This document shows positions 5,766-23,762 of a stretch of DNA of 32,000 nt, piece after piece. The position numbers and the translations under genes were made by a program. Source of the DNA: Nitrososphaeria archaeon (GTDB lineage: Archaea > Thermoproteota > Nitrososphaeria > Conexivisphaerales > Conexivisphaeraceae); the NCBI GenBank assembly GCA_046536535.1, contig JAWDMO010000003.1, positions 1-32,000 of the forward strand, written 5' to 3'. The stretch's first letter is position 1. Each line of letters begins with the position of its first letter. The notes under the pieces are model-generated. The model was not told the origin of the DNA. It saw only the letters and a list, made by a program, of their open reading frames with translations, and did no database searches.

Positions 5766-6587
5766 TTGTTGAGGATCAACGCGCTCGAGGAGAGGGCCAG
5801 GCGCGCCGCGCGCAGATACGACGGCCTGTCCATCGCTATCATAGGCTGCGCCGCGGAGGGAATCCCGGCCGAATGGTGTCCGATGGATGTCGTGGCCTTC
5901 CCGAGCGAGGAGGAGGGTCAGGAGATCTGGAGGGAGCGCGGATCCGTCGTCAGGATAATAGTCGCGCGGAGGCCGCCGCGCGAGGAGATCCCGTCGATGA
6001 TAATCGTCGATGATAGGTCCATGGAGGCAGCTGCACTGAAGGCGAGCTGGAAGGATAGGAGGGAGGAGCTGGCGCGCGCCGTCGCCAGGCGCGACGCTAT
6101 GGATGCCGCCGAGAGCACCGCCAGGGGGCTCGAGGCCGCGGACGCCACGGCCGTATACTACTACGCGATGAAGTCGTTCTCGCTCCTCACATCGTCCGCC
6201 GTGGCGGCGGCCGGCAGTATCCCGAGGCCAGCGCACTTAGTTAGACAGGCGAGGGCTCTGGACGTGTTGCCGCCGGGTCCGCCCGGCGAGCTGGCGCATG
6301 TGAAGAGAGTTGTGGATGCCGTCGGTAGGATCCTGTACTCGGAGCTGGACGAGGAGGTCGAGGGATATGTCTTCCGCAGGAAGGCCGAGGCGCTTATCGA
6401 GTCGGGGCTCCTGCTTGACGCAATCACGCTGGCATTCTACGAGGCATCGCGTAGAATAGGTGACGACCTCGCCCTAGCGCATATGAGGAGCGCGTGGAGC
6501 CCGGAGGACGGCAGGGCTTTTCTGATGAAACTGGCGGCCGAGGAGTCCAGAATCTGGAGGCACATCCGGAAGTCTGGCAGGGGATGA
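5766..6587 (+). CDS. hypothetical protein
   Basis: 273-aa ORF with a TTG start and coding-like composition. An AT-rich box (TAATAGAT, 5739-5746) lies ~24 nt upstream. No family recognised. Confidence 0.5.
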   Translation: MLRINALEERARRAARRYDGLSIAIIGCAAEGIPAEWCPMDVVAFPSEEEGQEIWRERGSVVRIIVARRPPREEIPSMIIVDDRSMEAAALKASWKDRREELARAVARRDAMDAAESTARGLEAADATAVYYYAMKSFSLLTSSAVAAAGSIPRPAHLVRQARALDVLPPGPPGELAHVKRVVDAVGRILYSELDEEVEGYVFRRKAEALIESGLLLDAITLAFYEASRRIGDDLALAHMRSAWSPEDGRAFLMKLAAEESRIWRHIRKSGRG

Positions 6588-6640
6588 AGCGTCCGCTTTG
6601 CCGCACATCGGACGCCGTTGGCGGCTGTTCGTGAGTAGCT

Positions 6641-6892
6641 TGCTGTGTACACGCGCTTTTCATTTCAATCAACGCGGCCATCAACCTCCACCTGGGGATG
6701 AAGGGGGTTTCCCCGCCCGTGGCGGAGAAATGGATGTATATCCGCCCACGTATGGTGGATTGATACCCCCGAATGGAGGCGGAGGAACTCCGATGAACCC
6801 GCGAGGGGTCTGTATGATGCCGTGAAGCCCCAGCTCTACGCGTACGACAGGTACACTGATGCGTACATGTGCGCGCCTATGTAGAGCGAAAC
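6641..6892 (+). mobile_element. decayed IS200/IS605-type tnpB 3' end plus right-end omega-RNA-like scaffold (copy A)
   Basis: One frame reads ...CCVHALFISINAAINLHLGMKG, resembling the TnpB C-terminal C..CG..D.D.NAA.N motif. About 220 nt are near-identical to 9346-9576. Similarity ends at GTAGAGCGAAAC. Confidence 0.6.
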
Positions 6893-6974
6893 CCGTCGAT
6901 CCTATGGAACAATTTCGCATGCGGCGTCTCGGATAAGACCTCCGGGAGGGCAGTCGATCCACGGCCTGACCTCG

Positions 6975-7316
6975 CTACTGTGAGGAGGACTCCGTGGCCT
7001 TCTTGAGCGATATCCGGCTGTCCTTGAACTCGAGCTCGTAGACGTCGTTGACCTCGAAGCGTATTCCTAGCATCTCATACTCGTCCTCGGTCAGGTAGAG
7101 TACTATCTTAGGCATGGCCATCTCCCTCATGGGGGGCACCAGGCCCCAGCTCTGAAGCTGGTTCATGAGGTTTGAGAGGAGGGCTGCCTCCTCCTGGGGG
7201 GCTCCGATGAATCCGGACGTGTGCCTCCTGACGCCGATGAGCTCTATCTGTTTCCCGGACGCGCCCGTCTCGGGGTCCGTGAAGCTCGATATGCGGAACA
7301 CCCTGACAAGGACCAA
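6975..7316 (-). CDS. hypothetical 113-aa protein (last gene of the recombinase-like/DHH operon)
   Basis: TTG start 29 nt after the DHH stop, on the same strand. Coding-like composition. No family recognised. Confidence 0.5.
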   Translation of the reverse strand: MVLVRVFRISSFTDPETGASGKQIELIGVRRHTSGFIGAPQEEAALLSNLMNQLQSWGLVPPMREMAMPKIVLYLTEDEYEMLGIRFEVNDVYELEFKDSRISLKKATESSSQ

Positions 7317-8342: not shown

Positions 8343-8909
8343 CTAGTTAGCCTTTCCGGATTCCAGCTCCCTCAGTTTGCGCCAGACGGTTGACTTGCTC
8401 ACGTCCAGCGCCTTGGCTATGGCGCGCACGCTCATGCCCCGCTCGCGCAGCTTGAGGAGCTCCGCCTCGTCCACCGATCTGGGAGGGCGGCCGGTCTTCT
8501 TGGAGGACTGCTGTCTCTGATTCCGCTGCGAGGCGGCGAGCTCCACGGCCATCGACAGCAACTCCATCATGAGCTTCCCCAGCGCCGTGCGCCCATCTAT
8601 CCTGAGACCCCTACTCACGAGGACAACCGATATCCCGGACGCGTAGAGCTTCCTCACCACCTCATAGGATGACTGGAGGTCCGGGCCGAACGAGGAGAGG
8701 TCACGCGCCAATATCGTCTTGGCGCCGTTCCAGCTGCACAGCTCAAGGACGCGACTGGGTGGATCCCGATCCCCGGACGCGCTGACGGCGCCGACCAGCA
8801 TGTAACCATGATCCTCAGCCCACGCCCTGATGTCGGGTTCCTGATCGTCGCCATCCCCTAGATAGCCCACGGCGAGCGCGGCCCTGACCTCCTCGACGGT
8901 GCGGGACAT
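8343..8909 (-). CDS. serine-recombinase (resolvase/invertase)-like protein with substituted catalytic residues and a C-terminal HTH
   Basis: Collinear by eye with gamma-delta resolvase / Hin: GY-LGDGDDQ vs GYARVSTxxQ, SASGDRD...LELC, ARDLSSFGP vs LDRLGR, and GRPPRSVDEAELLKLRERGMSVRAIAKALDVSKSTVWRKL for the HTH. The nucleophile Ser and flanking Arg positions are Gly/Ser/Pro here. Confidence 0.7.
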   Translation of the reverse strand: MSRTVEEVRAALAVGYLGDGDDQEPDIRAWAEDHGYMLVGAVSASGDRDPPSRVLELCSWNGAKTILARDLSSFGPDLQSSYEVVRKLYASGISVVLVSRGLRIDGRTALGKLMMELLSMAVELAASQRNQRQQSSKKTGRPPRSVDEAELLKLRERGMSVRAIAKALDVSKSTVWRKLRELESGKAN

Positions 8910-9082
8910 GATGCCGCATATTATACGGTTGCCGACCCTAATGGTTGAGATCTAGATTGATAGACAAATCGCTGACTTTCGGCCGCACTTTCGAGTGCAG
9001 CATGATGCGCCCTCGGACTAGGCGTCCCGCTGACGGGACAGCTGTGTTTCAGATGTCGGCGCCGACGGCGGCGGTCCCTCAG

Positions 9083-9178
9083 TAGGTAAGTTTTGAATTA
9101 TCATTGTTGTTATTAATTATTAGTAATATTGCTCGGGATAATTGCCGGGATTTTTAAGTTAAATCGAAATATCATATC
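9083..9178. other. sharp AT-rich island in GC-rich DNA
   Basis: AAGTTTTGAATTATCATTGTTGTTATTAATTATTAGTAATATT...TTTTTAAGTTAAATCGAAATATCATAT. It lies between the recombinase-like gene and the tnpB relic and contains no ORF. Confidence 0.6.
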
Positions 9179-9213
9179 CAGATGACCGCATCATCCAACC
9201 CTTTCTGGATGGA

Positions 9214-9576
9214 GTGAGGTCCGTGTTTAAGGAGGGTCGACGGAGCCGTGGAATTATCCCTAGGACACGTGCTCCTGATACGGGTGGGTCGACTAAGATA
9301 GGAGGCGCGGCCTTCAGGTGCGGGCTCGCAATTGACATGCGACTGAACGCGGCCGTCAACCTCCACCTGGGGATGAAGGGGGTTTCCCCGCCCGTGGCGG
9401 AGAAATGGATGCATATACCGCACACGTACGGTGGATTGATACCCCCGAATGGAGGCGGAGGAACTCCGATGAACCCGCGAGGGGTCTATACGATATGATG
9501 CCGTGAAGCCCCGGCTCCACTGTTCATTCGATGTGTACGATCACGTATATCCGCGCATGCCTACGTAGGGTGAAAC
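9214..9576 (+). mobile_element. tnpB pseudogene fragment plus right-end omega-RNA-like scaffold (copy B, most complete)
   Basis: The translation ends ...GGAAFRCGLAIDMRLNAAVNLHLGMKG, a degenerate TnpB C-terminal Zn-finger / D.D.NAA.N motif. 9346-9576 repeats 6671-6892. The last ~105 nt also repeat at 21422-21524. Similarity ends at GTAGGGTGAAAC (9576). Confidence 0.65.
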
Positions 9577-15523: not shown

Positions 15524-18079
15524 TCAGGAGAAGAACTCCTCTATGCTGGTTATTCCCATTATCTCCTCGAAGCTATAGCCGAGCGCGTCCAGAAGCTGAT
15601 CGAATGTTGAGCGCAGGTAGTCGATGTATTTATCCACGTCGACATCCTCCGGTCTCGCCATCGAAACAGGCTTCACGCCGAGCCCGCCGGCGGTCTTCAC
15701 GTATGATATTATATCCCCCGGTTTGACGTCCTTCCCGGCGTTCCTGAGGAGCCGGGCAGCCTTCACGTGCTGGGGCGTCGTATCCTTATACTGGTCGATC
15801 GACTTGCTCAGCATCACGTGGAACGCTAAGACGTCGAGCGGCACCTTCCTGTTTCTTATGTCCAGGTATGCCTGCCTTATCATCCCCCTGATCTCGGAGC
15901 TCGCGTGCTCGAAGTCCTGCTCCGAGCTGACCCTCGATAGCACGTCCAGGACGTCGTAGAAGACCTTCTTTATATAATCGGGTGTGTTGCTCTTCTTGCC
16001 GGTGAGCCCCTTGACCTCCACGCGGCCTCCCGGATATACGCCGATGTAGTTCTTCTTCCTCTCGCTGAATGCGACGTAACGGAACACCTTATCCACGTCC
16101 AGATCTATTCCCAGCTTCTCCTTCGCCCAGTTAGTGAGCTCCTTCACCTGATCCTCGCTCGGCGCCCTCACGAAGAGGGAGTCCGTGTCGCCGTAGATCA
16201 CCTCCAGGCCCATCTCCTTGGCATGGTTCAGCGTCTGGGTGATCGCCCACCTGCCATACGCGGTCGTGGCCTCGGCCACCGGCAGGTAGTAGAGGGCGAA
16301 GTTCTCGAACCCCATCACGCCGTAGCTCGCGTTGAGTATCACCTTGAGTGCCTGTGATATGACGGAGTAGAATTCCTTTTCCTCATTCGTGACCCCGGGC
16401 CTCTTTGAGAGCGCCTTGAAGTAGTCCACGCGTATGTCCCTGAGAGATCCTATCAGCAGCGACGTTATTCCGCGCCTCTTCTTGCAGATCCAGTGGGCGG
16501 TGTCCGGGACGCGCAAGGAGGGGTCGTCGCGGCACTCATCGTGCGGACAGCGCACGGTCTCATACGATATGTTGTAGACCTTTATTATGCTGGGATACAG
16601 CGACGCGAAGTCCAAGACCACGACGTTGAAGTGTATCCCGGGAACCGGCTCTATGACCAAGCCTCCCCTGTACTTCTTATCCTTTATCACAGCCTTCGAG
16701 TAGGAGATCGATCTGGACTCCAGGTCCTCCTTCCTCGGGACTATGGCGCCCCACCGCCTGTGCTCGAATATCAGCAGGCTCCTTATCCAGTTGGAGACGC
16801 TGGTCCTAGCGACGTCCGCCATCGGCATCTTCGCGACCCTCATCACGGTTATCAGGAGCCTCATCAGCAGGTCGTTGTTGAACTCCGAGAGCCTGTAGGT
16901 GAGCTCGGAGTCGGTGTAGTTGTAGTATGCGAGCATTTCGAACGATAGATCGTTGATGGAGCCCTCGAATTCAACCTTCTCCATCCCCAGCAGGGCCTCG
17001 GCGAGCGCGTTCAGCGTATGCTCTGAGTACCGGTTGTTGAACGCATATCCCTGTATGGCCCGATTGTTGAAGACCTTGTACAGATCCACGTGGATCCCGT
17101 GGCGGACGTGGGCCTCGTTGCTACCTAGCGTTATGGGGATCGCGTCCTTGGGTATCCCGAACCTGAGCGCGCGGTGATATAGATATGGGAGGTCGAAGTC
17201 GTCCCCGTTGAACGTCAGGATCACCGGATAATCCATCATGTCCTTGAAGAACGCTAGGAGCAGTTCCTCCTCCGAGTCGAACACGAGCTCCTGGACGTCC
17301 GGCGGCAGCCTGCGCTCCCCGACCTCGAGCTCCGGCCGCCTCAGCAGATAGACGCGTTTTACACCATCGCTCCCCACGAGCGAGATGCTGATCACCTTCT
17401 GATCGGCCCTCTGCGGATCGGGGATCCTGTCCATCTGCTCCGTGAATACCTCTATGTCCATGGCCGCGCGCTTCACCTTCGGGAACGGCTGGCTCAACAC
17501 CTCCGCCCACTCCTCTACGTAGCGCCTGAACTCGGGCTCGACCCGCTCCAGCGCGTTCGTGAGCGCGGCCCTGACATCGCCGGGGACCTCGAACGCCGGC
17601 GGCTTCACGACGCCGGATTCGACCCTGTAGAATGCGCCCGGATGTATCCCCATGTCGTAGATGTAATTCAGGTAATACGTTATATCGGCCTCGTACGCCT
17701 CGACGACGTCGCGCAGGCCCTTCCTGCCGCCCGATCCCGAGACCGCCAGCGGATCGTCAACGACTATCTTCGTGAACGGCACACGCCCGTCGTTCAGCAG
17801 ATCCATCTTCTCCTCCACGCGGAGCTCCAATACGTCGTCCCTGTCGCGGAGGAATACAAGTTCCTCCGGGGGCGCCCTTGTGTACAGATATGGCCTGTGC
17901 CCCGTAGTGTCGTAGTAGAACCGGATTTCCTGGGACCGGGGGTCGTAGAATTGCAGGTATGCCAGCTTCCTCTGCCCATCATAGCCCGCTCCCAGGAGCA
18001 GGGAATCCGGCACATCGTTGCTGTGCTCGGTCAACTTGGACAGACTTTCGATTAGCTGCGCGGGCGTGGGAGGATCCAT
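15524..18079 (-). CDS. polB: family-B DNA polymerase
   Basis: Exo I AMDIEV, motif A DFASLYPSII, motif B KVILNASYG, motif C YGDTDS. 851 aa. Confidence 0.95.
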   Translation of the reverse strand: MDPPTPAQLIESLSKLTEHSNDVPDSLLLGAGYDGQRKLAYLQFYDPRSQEIRFYYDTTGHRPYLYTRAPPEELVFLRDRDDVLELRVEEKMDLLNDGRVPFTKIVVDDPLAVSGSGGRKGLRDVVEAYEADITYYLNYIYDMGIHPGAFYRVESGVVKPPAFEVPGDVRAALTNALERVEPEFRRYVEEWAEVLSQPFPKVKRAAMDIEVFTEQMDRIPDPQRADQKVISISLVGSDGVKRVYLLRRPELEVGERRLPPDVQELVFDSEEELLLAFFKDMMDYPVILTFNGDDFDLPYLYHRALRFGIPKDAIPITLGSNEAHVRHGIHVDLYKVFNNRAIQGYAFNNRYSEHTLNALAEALLGMEKVEFEGSINDLSFEMLAYYNYTDSELTYRLSEFNNDLLMRLLITVMRVAKMPMADVARTSVSNWIRSLLIFEHRRWGAIVPRKEDLESRSISYSKAVIKDKKYRGGLVIEPVPGIHFNVVVLDFASLYPSIIKVYNISYETVRCPHDECRDDPSLRVPDTAHWICKKRRGITSLLIGSLRDIRVDYFKALSKRPGVTNEEKEFYSVISQALKVILNASYGVMGFENFALYYLPVAEATTAYGRWAITQTLNHAKEMGLEVIYGDTDSLFVRAPSEDQVKELTNWAKEKLGIDLDVDKVFRYVAFSERKKNYIGVYPGGRVEVKGLTGKKSNTPDYIKKVFYDVLDVLSRVSSEQDFEHASSEIRGMIRQAYLDIRNRKVPLDVLAFHVMLSKSIDQYKDTTPQHVKAARLLRNAGKDVKPGDIISYVKTAGGLGVKPVSMARPEDVDVDKYIDYLRSTFDQLLDALGYSFEEIMGITSIEEFFS

Positions 18080-21531: not shown

Positions 21532-21696
21532 TCAGACAGCGGGAATCTGCTTGACGACCTCCGGCCTGACCTTCCTGAATACCCTGTAGCCGCATATGCA
21601 CTTGACGCTCAGATAACTGTCCAGCTCCCTCTTCGTCACCCTTGCACCGCATCTCACGCACTCGTAAACTACGTCCTCGGATTCCTGCGCCGACAT
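21532..21696 (-). CDS. rpoP: DNA-directed RNA polymerase subunit P (Rpo12/RpoP)
   Basis: Translated by hand (too short for the ORF track): MSAQESEDVVYECVRCGARVTKRELDSYLSVKCICGYRVFRKVRPEVVKQIPAV. It has the C-x2-C...C-x-C ribbon and the RVFRKVRP tail typical of RpoP. A TATA-like element (revcomp CTTTTAATAT at 21717-21727) lies upstream. Confidence 0.8.
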   Translation of the reverse strand: MSAQESEDVVYECVRCGARVTKRELDSYLSVKCICGYRVFRKVRPEVVKQIPAV

Positions 21697-21859
21697 ATGG
21701 CGCCGGCGGGAAATGCCATATTAAAAGATTTTCGCAATTGATGCCGCGTTGTACATCCCCCAGGAATATCGCTCGACGGCCGCCGTTCGCAAATAGTTTG
21801 CTGCATACACCCCTTCTTCGATCAATAGGTAATAATTCTATGTCGAATTTATAGGGTGT

Positions 21860-22446
21860 TAGGGGTCTGGGGGAAGCGGTAAAACTCCGACCTTCAGGGA
21901 GGAGATGAATTACGAAAAGCATATATGCATAGTAATGCTATAATTCCTCGTGGAAAGTCCTGCGAATAAGCCCTTCGGAGAAGGCATGCAGGATACTCCC
22001 ACGACAAAACCGGTCCATGACCGGTTTGGAATGCCTCCACAGCCCGCCCCAGGTGCTGTGGATAAAGGCATGTCCAGATTGCACGCAGACAGGGATGCGT
22101 GCAAGGGGAGCACTGATACCCCCAGAGGGGCAACGTTCAGGGCGGGGACGACCTCGAAACTCAATAATGGAGGCCCTGCGAAACGCTCCCCGACCGCGAG
22201 GGATGAGGGAGTAACGGGAAGCAAAAGTAGAGCCTCCGTCGCTTTAGAGAGGAGAGCATGTCAGCATGGTGAAGTGAATTGGGGGCGGGAATGTCCCGGA
22301 TGCACGCTCATCCCCGATGGAATGTGAACGCGGCGAGGAATCAACGCCGGGATCCGGGACGGGCCCCCGCGGAGGCCGAACCCCTAATACCCAAGGGACG
22401 AGCGGGTTCGGCAAGGAGTCGGGAAGCACGCCCGGACGTGTGCAGC
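21860..22446 (+). ncRNA. candidate large structured RNA of unknown family (boundaries and strand uncertain)
   Basis: No credible ORF in any frame. Consecutive perfect hairpins at 21950-22002, 22007-22027, 22031-22071, 22079-22104, 22376-22411 and 22426-22443; the last has a G-U pair that only works on the + strand. TATA-like boxes at 21848-21855 and 21921-21928. Confidence 0.4.
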
Positions 22447-23622
22447 TCACATTATCGAGGCCCTCTGTGGAAACTTCAGCTGGAGCACCGACAGGCCTTG
22501 GCCGGCTGAACTGTGGACGACCGACGGCTCCACGCCCTTGCTCCTCAGATATCCCAGGAACGCAAGGAACCACGGCGTGGGGGGCAACTTGGCAGGACTC
22601 CCGTACTCTATGGTCATTATCTTTGTCAACTGATCGTATCTCACGGATCCCCGCGGCAGGCTATCCCTCAGAAGGGCGCTCCACAGGACCATCGATGCCT
22701 CGGCGGGCTCCCCATCGATCTCGGGCAGCAGCTTGAGGAACCCGGAGTATGCCGCGTCGGCGATGGCGCCTAGGTCATGTATGGGGAGCGTCGAGAGCAG
22801 CGCCTCCAGAATTCCGCCGTAGAGTTCATCCTCACCTCCCAGCAGGCTCGCAGCGCCTGACATGCCGGTCCTCACGAGGTCCAGGAACCTCTCCAGCGGC
22901 ATCCCGCTCTCCCATAGGCCGTTGAAGAGCGCCCCGAGGGCTTCCACGATGATCGGCGATTCGAGTGCCATCCCCACCCCGGCCCTGCTGTCCAGGAGGA
23001 GCGCGATCCTGCCGTCGAACGTGAACGCGCTCCATCCTCCGCCGTGCAGCGCGACGCGCGTCAGCTCCGCGAGCTCGGTGATCTCCGTGGACTCCTCGTC
23101 ATAGCCGTCGACCACGAGCCTTATCTCGACGTCCCCGAGCGCGGCGGACCTGAGCTCCTTCTTGGCGCTGAGCGCCAGTTCTGCGCCCCAGTGATCGAGT
23201 ATGCCGTGCACCTCCCTGGAGGCGCCGGATATCAATTCCCTCAACCTTTCCACGATCGCGGTCCCCGCGACCAGCGAATATCTCCCCTCGGGGCCCTCCA
23301 CGGCGCCGATGCCCTTGCCCAGCCTCCTGAGCTCCTCGAGCGTCCTCCTGAGCCTCCTAGCCCTCCTCTCCTCCTCCTCGACCATGTCGCCCAGGACCTC
23401 ATCCGGATCCATCGCCGCGCACAGGAGGGGCCTGCCGTGCAGCTCCGCGAGCCCCTTCCTCTCCAGGGATTTCACTGCCTCGTAGACCTTCGTGCGCGGC
23501 ACCCCCGCCCTGACCGCCAGATCCGCCACCTTGGCCGGACCCCCCCTGAGGAGCGCTGCGTATATCCGGGATTCGTACTCGCTCAGTCCCATCTCCTTCA
23601 ATCTCTCCAGCACGCCGGCCAC
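22447..23622 (-). CDS. TrmB-family wHTH transcriptional regulator with an extended C-terminal domain
   Basis: (V)AGVLERLKEMGLSEYESRIYAALLRGGPAKVADLAVRAGVPRTKVYEAVKSLERKGL is a canonical TrmB N-terminus. The ORF is open up to 23742, but the family-typical start is the GTG at 23622 (or ATG at 23592). Divergent from cdvB. Confidence 0.8.
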   Translation of the reverse strand: MAGVLERLKEMGLSEYESRIYAALLRGGPAKVADLAVRAGVPRTKVYEAVKSLERKGLAELHGRPLLCAAMDPDEVLGDMVEEEERRARRLRRTLEELRRLGKGIGAVEGPEGRYSLVAGTAIVERLRELISGASREVHGILDHWGAELALSAKKELRSAALGDVEIRLVVDGYDEESTEITELAELTRVALHGGGWSAFTFDGRIALLLDSRAGVGMALESPIIVEALGALFNGLWESGMPLERFLDLVRTGMSGAASLLGGEDELYGGILEALLSTLPIHDLGAIADAAYSGFLKLLPEIDGEPAEASMVLWSALLRDSLPRGSVRYDQLTKIMTIEYGSPAKLPPTPWFLAFLGYLRSKGVEPSVVHSSAGQGLSVLQLKFPQRASIM

Positions 23623-23762
23623 GTCGTGTACGCCGCGCGCCGCGCATAAGTCGATGGGGGGCCACGTCGCTGGACGTCCGCGTCTAATGATTTTGTCACC
23701 GATTCCCCGGATATCGCGGTGACAAAACCGAGAACTAGTCATACGGGGAAAGGGTATCGAAC

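Follow-up and report, generated by a model that had tools for sequence, protein, structure and literature searches.

Genes are tightly packed in the 32,000-nt stretch of an archaeal contig analysed here (the window), with one long interruption between the start of rpoP (21696, minus strand) and the stop of a TrmB-like regulator gene (22447, minus strand). What does this tract encode, if anything? An earlier note, made from the letters of the DNA, had proposed that about 0.6 kb of it (21860–22446) is a single hairpin-dense RNA of unknown class, read from the plus strand and lying next to an ESCRT locus.

Coding content and folding of the tract

The tract was bounded by rpoP and the TrmB-like gene as the note had placed it, and a sliding coding score confirmed that it is the longest low-coding stretch of the window (960 nt, compared with 630 and 600 nt for the next two). 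The hairpins that had been listed were present at their positions, and the tract was more stable than dinucleotide shuffles of it on both strands (z = −5.05 for the plus strand and −4.1 for the minus strand). Its plus strand is purine-rich, resembling the sense strand of genes in this window. Codon scores were below zero in all six frames, GC3 in these frames was about 0.6 compared with 0.76–0.88 for the genes of the window, and the short ORFs of the tract gave no Pfam match. These results bear out the claim that the tract is non-coding. It has one weak trace of a protein, in that the translation of 22067–22153 matches the C-terminal tail of TnpB (72% over 29 amino acids, E = 2e-9), an echo that is present because the RNA core described below overlaps the 3′ end of tnpB in full-length relatives. 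A decayed gene detectable by translated search had been named in the earlier note as evidence against its RNA; this 29-amino-acid tail alone was found, a minor trace of that kind.

The Rfam search that had been proposed returned no known family in 21600–22600 on either strand, even at E ≤ 10, and the sole Rfam match in the window was a tRNA at 128–201. Two more low-coding stretches of about 600 nt, at 6451–7080 and 8821–9420, were also without an Rfam match. On the rpoP side, a spacer (21697–21851) lies outside the element described below and has no homology to any copy of it, the similarity to one copy, L090, beginning at 21850. An AT-rich box about 25–30 nt before the ATG, at about 21722–21735, marks a probable rpoP promoter on the minus strand. 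On the other side, the mechanical ORF of the TrmB-like gene (22447–23742) encodes 431 amino acids, compared with 391 in the deposited protein (P0001), and the true start is probably about 40 codons downstream of the start of that ORF.

Relatives of the tract in hot-spring metagenomes

Relatives were located by translating a spurious plus-strand ORF (21950–22327) and searching a protein collection with the product. This search returned 25 ‘proteins’ of widely differing length from hot-spring metagenomes and metagenome-assembled genomes (MAGs). The peptide encoded by 22078–22134 was common to all 25, and two of them (P0028 and P0030) start with a typical TnpB C-terminus. Their contigs share DNA in unrelated contexts (PPase/S10; MscS/flavin reductase; OMP decarboxylase/TatC), and the similarity of these loci to the window spans 21850 or 21881 to 22264 and then ends. 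A separate match covers 22291–22411, and therefore the tract is composite. Instead of the single 0.6-kb unit that had been proposed, homology to other loci splits it into an element of about 415 nt (21852–22264) and an unrelated segment of about 160 nt (22289–22446). The adjacency to ESCRT genes is incidental, since relatives of the element sit in many unrelated contexts. Plasmid and phage collections gave no match to the tract.

Using the invariant core of the element (22079–22134) as a scan motif over metagenomes, we obtained 97 stretches. After they were oriented, three recurring blocks became apparent: the left hairpin block (21885–21911), the core, and a right block ending in ...GAGGAGAG(U/C)AUGUCAG. 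About 100 relatives in hot-spring metagenomes have in common the left-end hairpin (21885–21904), the core, and the right-end hairpin with the 10 nt that follow it (22234–22264), and they fall into three size classes. Copies with tnpA and tnpB are about 1.55 kb long, with the left block at about −1465 nt from the core and ORFs of 141 and 362–385 amino acids; copies with tnpB only are about 1.15–1.27 kb long, with the left block at about −1067 to −1188 nt; and copies without an ORF are 0.3–0.39 kb long, with the left block at about −215 to −290 nt. The window copy, with its left block at −222 nt, falls in the last class. The distinct mini-copies (n = 20) measure 301–386 nt, and the window copy measures 381 nt from the left hairpin to the right end.

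The 141-amino-acid ORF, present in L118, L144 and L147, is a Y1 (HUH) TnpA (Pfam Y1_Tnp, E = 7e-41), and the 357-amino-acid ORF of L118 is a TnpB (PF07282, E = 1.3e-22, with a weak match to PF01385). At 13 loci, ORFs of 338–385 amino acids terminate in the core, which lies within the last tnpB codons in gene-bearing copies. Neither tnpA nor tnpB was found within the 32-kb window, which holds a single copy of the element. This copy has the family ends and contains no protein-coding gene, as judged by the lack of a coding signal and of Pfam matches. Decay intermediates were observed at L087:4852–5361, L178:240–612 and L102:10976–11333, in which the last 60–100 or so tnpB codons (the Zn-ribbon part) are left between the left end and the RNA core.

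Two copies were observed on some contigs (in L129, and as L107 and L109 of a shared contig), and the 5′ RNA module of L181 (see below) is 100% identical to that of the window in a different context. From these alignments, both features look like signs of recent mobility. The window copy is 92–100% identical in parts to ordinary copies. We also observed copies (P0013, P0019 and P0020) deposited under MAGs labelled Thermoprotei and Thermoplasmata, besides Nitrososphaeria. This labelling hints at cross-phylum spread of the element, with binning errors being possible and one of the contigs only 708 nt long.

Element ends and predicted target site

The right boundary of the element is sharp, as homology stops exactly after ...TGTCAG (...AUGUCAG in the RNA) in 73 distinct flanks. 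Here the right-end hairpin (CUCC...GGAG, 22234–22254) is followed by the terminal 10 nt, AGCAUGUCAG, which end in TCAG at 22264. On the left, the subterminal hairpin CUCC-GA-CC-UUCA-GG-GA-GGAG (21885–21904) was conserved in 52 left ends (45 distinct flanks), and its distance from the core ranged from −215 to −1487 nt. The two hairpins are near repeats of each other in direct orientation, and the ends of the family consist of subterminal hairpins on both sides, with no terminal inverted repeats. Both hairpins of the window element are of the kind recognised by the Y1 transposase TnpA. In family copies the left flanks diverge immediately ahead of a conserved TTAC, which was found 17–21 nt (mode 19) before the foot of the left hairpin in 40 of the 45 distinct left flanks; for random 30-nt windows the figure was 7%. 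A mini-copy with TTAC lies, for example, at L181:1101–1407. The hairpin foot is immediately preceded by the four bases AAAG. These flanks indicate that the family inserts 3′ of TTAC, with 19 nt to the left hairpin as the commonest spacing.

This geometry is that of IS608 from Helicobacter pylori, in which TTAC lies 19 nt before the left hairpin, AAAG provides the guide bases and right cleavage takes place 10 nt after the right hairpin (PMC3201880). On account of the TTAC spacing, the AAAG and the 10-nt right tail, we therefore assign the elements to an IS608-like IS200/IS605 family. The full-length relatives also share with IS608 a Y1 HUH TnpA and a TnpB, as well as subterminal hairpins in place of inverted repeats. 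They differ in that the right cleavage tetranucleotide is TCAG in the family and TCAA in IS608, in that GAAC or GAGC stands before the hairpin of the family, and in that the hosts are archaea of acidic hot springs. The window copy differs further from IS608 by lacking both genes and TTAC.

A hybrid left end and a second type of IS

The family follows the TTAC rule, but the hybrid left end of the window copy breaks it. In place of TTAC and 19 nt, the 5′ portion of this left end (21852–21884, plus strand) is of a second IS type (‘B-type’), with a TATA-like box followed by GTTAGGGGTCTGGGGGAAGCGGTAAAA, and both TTAC and the outer stem are missing. We found this hybrid left end in L090, L133, L140 and L142 as well, which represent one locus, so that with the window it is known from at least two contexts.

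The second type is a related IS200/IS605 element that we observed in L122 (minus strand, from 699), L129/L181, L105, L106 and L176. Its left end forms a longer composite hairpin (GGGGGAAG...CUUCCCCC) around an inner hairpin almost identical to the one found in the first type. L122, L129 and L181 have the same start as the window copy and a different TnpB after the left end; L105, which also has this start, is a B-type mini-element, a gene-less copy of about 250 nt. By its sequence the window copy looks like a recombinant of the two IS types at the shared hairpin, and with neither TTAC nor the outer stem in its hybrid left end, it may be immobile. Among the copies with the hybrid end, L090 and L133/L140/L142 have the same left flank and left end, and differ in their 3′ domains (long versus short) and right flanks. 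This comparison suggests right-end recombination or replacement in related organisms.

The predicted RNA of the element

Between the left hairpin and the right end, the plus strand of the window copy comprises four parts. The AT-rich segment at 21905–21948, with TATA-like boxes at 21921–21928 and 21938–21943, is a candidate promoter of the RNA. It is conserved among mini-elements, and in full-length copies its first part sits between the left-end hairpin and tnpA or tnpB. We infer that the first TATA-like motif (21921) would place the RNA start near 21950. Next comes a 5′ RNA module (21949–22078) with three stem-loops (21950–22002, 22007–22027 and 22031–22071), which was found at 39 loci with 71–100% identity and is specific to mini-elements. 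The second and third stems show compensatory changes, and homology of the 130-nt module to the 3′ coding region of tnpB was not above that of shuffles. The module has no detectable counterpart in tnpB-containing copies, and any role of it in a TnpB complex would therefore be hypothetical. The invariant core (22079–22134) consists of a stem (22079–22104) followed by GGGGAGCACUGAUACCCCCAGAGGGGCAAC; it is 100% identical to L087 over 57 nt and has four compensatory pairs in the stem. The last part is a variable 3′ domain (22135–22233), which exists in two lengths, the right end falling at +154 to +156 from the core with one and at +82 to +83 with the other. The long variant, with about 72 nt more than the short one, is present in the window.

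In a consensus structure of 15 mini-elements, 97.3% of cells were paired, and 17 of 71 pairs were compensatory, compared with 9.2 ± 1.7 in shuffles and 0–6 with slid partners. Covariation supports the stems 22007–22027, 22031–22071 and 22079–22104, and also a hairpin at 22134–22150. For the long 3′ variant (21 sequences), 13 of 44 predicted pairs across 22078–22264 were compensatory, including the helix of 22173–22179 with 22227–22233. It is this helix that covaries, rather than the long-range GGAGGC/GCCUCC pair drawn in the earlier note, where GCCUCC belongs to the right-end hairpin. The last six bases of the scaffold, UGUCAG (22259–22264), pair with CUGAUA (22113–22118), and this pairing is kept in nearly all copies (sets of 14 and 21 sequences); the helix resembles the guide-adjacent pseudoknot of solved TnpB complexes. 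All stems are intact in the window copy. The conservation of the stems with compensatory changes agrees with the view that the plus strand is the meaningful one, and several conserved G-U pairs fit this strand only, a pattern that single-stranded DNA of the top strand would also give.

In known TnpB systems, the 3′ end of tnpB also encodes part of an omega RNA, which is read from the same strand as the gene and extends to the edge of the transposon, beyond which the flank serves as guide (PMC8612924). The RNA gene of the present family has this layout of a TnpB omega RNA: in full-length copies it shares sequence with the 3′ part of tnpB, in the same orientation, and extends as far as the right end, so that the flank would act as guide. 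The main part of the tract is thus not an RNA of unknown class but belongs to a class that the earlier note had set aside, being the omega-RNA-bearing right part of an IS200/IS605 (TnpA/TnpB) element. Archaeal precedents exist in the ‘sotRNAs’ of IS1341-type tnpB genes and in SisTnpB1 of Sulfolobus islandicus (PMC4615843; 10.1101/2023.03.06.531077). What the family shares with these RNAs and with that of ISDra2 (omega RNA or reRNA) is the layout and a helix joining the last scaffold bases to an upstream loop, the comparison being one of layout, not of sequence. ISDra2 has TTGAT as its TAM. For the family the predicted TAM is TTAC, compared with TTTAA for SisTnpB1 (10.1101/2023.03.06.531077). 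The sharp right boundary and the known layout (PMC8612924, PMC10055086) place the predicted guide portion of the window RNA in the flanking DNA outside the element, at 22265–22284 on the plus strand if a length of about 20 nt is assumed.

Synteny around the tract

The TrmB-like protein assigns the window to a Conexivisphaerales-like Nitrososphaeria MAG. We fetched relatives via the TrmB-like gene and via HMG-CoA synthase. In four relatives TrmB is followed by the gene for a 253-amino-acid membrane protein and then by aCPSF. In the closest relative retaining the rpoP–HMG-CoA synthase pair, the gene for an 876-amino-acid protein (L017:971–3601) ends 167 nt before rpoP. Conservation of synteny, which the earlier note had suggested checking, was not found: the closest relatives lack the tract beside either flanking gene, and its neighbourhood is not conserved. 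No similarity to the tract was detected in the TrmB or rpoP loci of those relatives by DNA or by translated (tblastx) comparison, and we rejected a decayed neighbouring gene as its origin on the grounds that tblastx against these loci gave nothing.

An apparent 1.9-kb ‘gap’ after TrmB in L002 was also dismissed. At L002:6088–8895 the membrane-protein gene and aCPSF read through as a single ORF of 935 amino acids, uncalled in the record. This read-through is probably a frameshift or a gene-calling problem, with no true gap.

As the flanks of the relatives differ on both sides, the tract coincides with a breakpoint of rearrangement or, possibly, with a chimeric join. A homologue of the 876-amino-acid gene is present elsewhere in the window, at 15530–18061, about 3.5 kb beyond the thiolase gene. 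Therefore, either the rpoP–HMG-CoA synthase–thiolase block has been rearranged relative to the closest relative, with the element at the breakpoint, or the MAG contig is chimeric.

The second segment of the tract

The segment next to the TrmB-like gene, which we call RNA-B (22289–22446, plus strand), has stems at 22376–22411 and 22426–22443 and is 82% identical to L087:6141–6260, L088 and L178. Its homologues extend over L087:6139–6296 and L178:1387–1544. L087, L088 and L178 represent one locus in three samples, and RNA-B was seen in just this one other genomic context. In L087 a copy of the element is 775 nt away from the homologue, on the far side of an S10 gene. A perfect 9-bp stem (22375–22383 with 22404–22412) is kept through a change from G-C to G-U, and this single substitution favours the plus strand. 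The predicted fold of RNA-B was not unusual (z = −1.6). No more copies were found by protein-level searches on both strands or by a covariance model over 0.69 Mb, and Rfam gave no match to RNA-B in the window and chance-level matches only for the L087 homologue. We asked whether the element had split an RNA-B gene by aligning 21697–21860 locally to the DNA that precedes RNA-B in L087; the outcome was marginal, as 7 of 300 shuffles reached the same score. Upstream of the L087 homologue, at L087:6000–6135, there is a strong TATA-like box, and this stretch resembles the C/D-box sRNA sR14 weakly and non-significantly (E = 6).

Weighing the explanations

Together, the analyses described above indicate that 21852–22264 or thereabouts, on the plus strand, is very probably a miniature gene-less IS200/IS605 element of the PATE or MITE type, with an omega RNA gene, from thermoacidophilic archaeal communities. 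Were the RNA instead to belong to a new class of structured RNA that stands alone at a fixed chromosomal site, has a promoter of its own and serves the cell in a housekeeping or regulatory role, then its strong, conserved and covarying structure, the TATA-like boxes upstream and the absence of an Rfam match would be explained, and so would the window and L090 subfamily, which has lost TTAC and opens directly with a TATA-like box. We regard this as very unlikely, because both ends and the core are common to elements bearing tnpA or tnpB, the boundaries are very sharp in dozens of differing flanks, several copies occur on some contigs, and the region is missing from the closest relatives at both flanking genes. 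The data also lean already towards a family with many copies per genome that differ among strains. Least credible of all is a known large RNA, such as that of RNase P, whose sequence has diverged beyond recognition by Rfam. The tract does have an exact GGAAAGUCC at 21952–21960 and AGAUGAAU at 21903–21910, which we take to recall the CR-I and CR-IV motifs of RNase P, respectively, but the former falls within a local hairpin, no RNase P, SRP RNA or group II intron model matched 21600–22600 on either strand at E ≤ 10, and the multiple copies of the sequence and the transposon ends that bound it already refute this reading.

The break in synteny requires consideration of an assembly artefact, in which a repeated element has led to two unrelated regions being joined in the MAG contig. 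Synteny breaks exactly at the element (TrmB is elsewhere followed by the 253-amino-acid gene and aCPSF, and rpoP is preceded by the 876-amino-acid gene), the homologue of the latter gene lies elsewhere in the window, and many metagenome copies are within about 100 nt of the locus end, which is often the contig end too. A chimeric join would normally be located within the repeat, yet the element runs unbroken from its left to its right end, and rearrangements associated with IS elements are common and account for the same data. An artefact is thus unlikely, and even if there were one, the identity of the element would be unchanged. A more serious possibility, which we still consider the minor one, is that the window copy is domesticated or fossil, a non-transposing copy whose omega-like RNA is either retained for a host function or a TnpB-related function in trans, or is decaying. 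The hybrid left end without TTAC, its occurrence in at least two contexts and the integrity of every stem speak for this; its high partial identity to ordinary copies speaks against it, intact stems may just reflect youth, and both the expression of such an RNA and its partner protein would be hypothetical.

How the element may work

For the miniature element that we favour, a mechanism can be proposed from known systems. Transcription would proceed from the AT-rich box past the left hairpin, starting near 21950, and would yield a scaffold (21949–22264) followed by flanking sequence from 22265 as the guide. A TnpB supplied by a full-length copy elsewhere would bind the window RNA and would cut the vacated site, which consists of TTAC and the guide-matching flank, so that repair would restore the element. 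TnpA, acting in trans, would move mini-elements as single-stranded DNA. The window copy itself is probably no longer mobile, given a hybrid left end without the TTAC cleavage site, and may be a fossil.

Elements of this kind have a precedent in the palindrome-associated transposable elements (PATEs), which are ORF-less IS200/IS605 derivatives, some of them encoding omega RNAs (PMC10055086). Like PATEs, the window-type mini-elements have no protein gene and keep the family ends and the omega RNA region (PMC10055086), and in both cases TnpA and TnpB presumably have to be supplied from other loci. They differ from PATEs in the 130-nt three-hairpin 5′ module, which is not detectably derived from tnpB, in the two alternative 3′ domains of the family, and in the recombination of the window left end with a second IS type. 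Gene-less IS200/IS605 elements with omega RNAs are already a known kind, and in this respect nothing is conceptually new. It is rather unlikely, on our estimate, that there is more to the tract, which could be so in one of two ways. The 5′ module, confined to gene-less copies, might be a new accessory domain that makes the mini-elements self-promoted, trans-acting guide-RNA genes, the RNA of the TTAC-less subfamily, to which the window copy belongs, perhaps being retained by the host and not by the transposon, or 22289–22446 might be an undescribed small RNA.

Implications

For annotation, these findings mean that what stood out in an archaeal MAG as an ‘orphan structured RNA’ is the relic of a transposon, and they indicate that translated spurious ORFs are an effective route to homologues of non-coding DNA. 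Should the TnpB and its RNA work at high temperature, developers of small genome editors may take an interest in them. The work adds an archaeal hot-spring family to IS200/IS605, with a compact TnpB of about 357–370 amino acids and a predicted TTAC target motif. Further notable features of this family are its abundant gene-less satellites that bear guide RNAs, its ends, which are apparently recombining with those of a second IS type, and the position of the window copy at a point of genome rearrangement.
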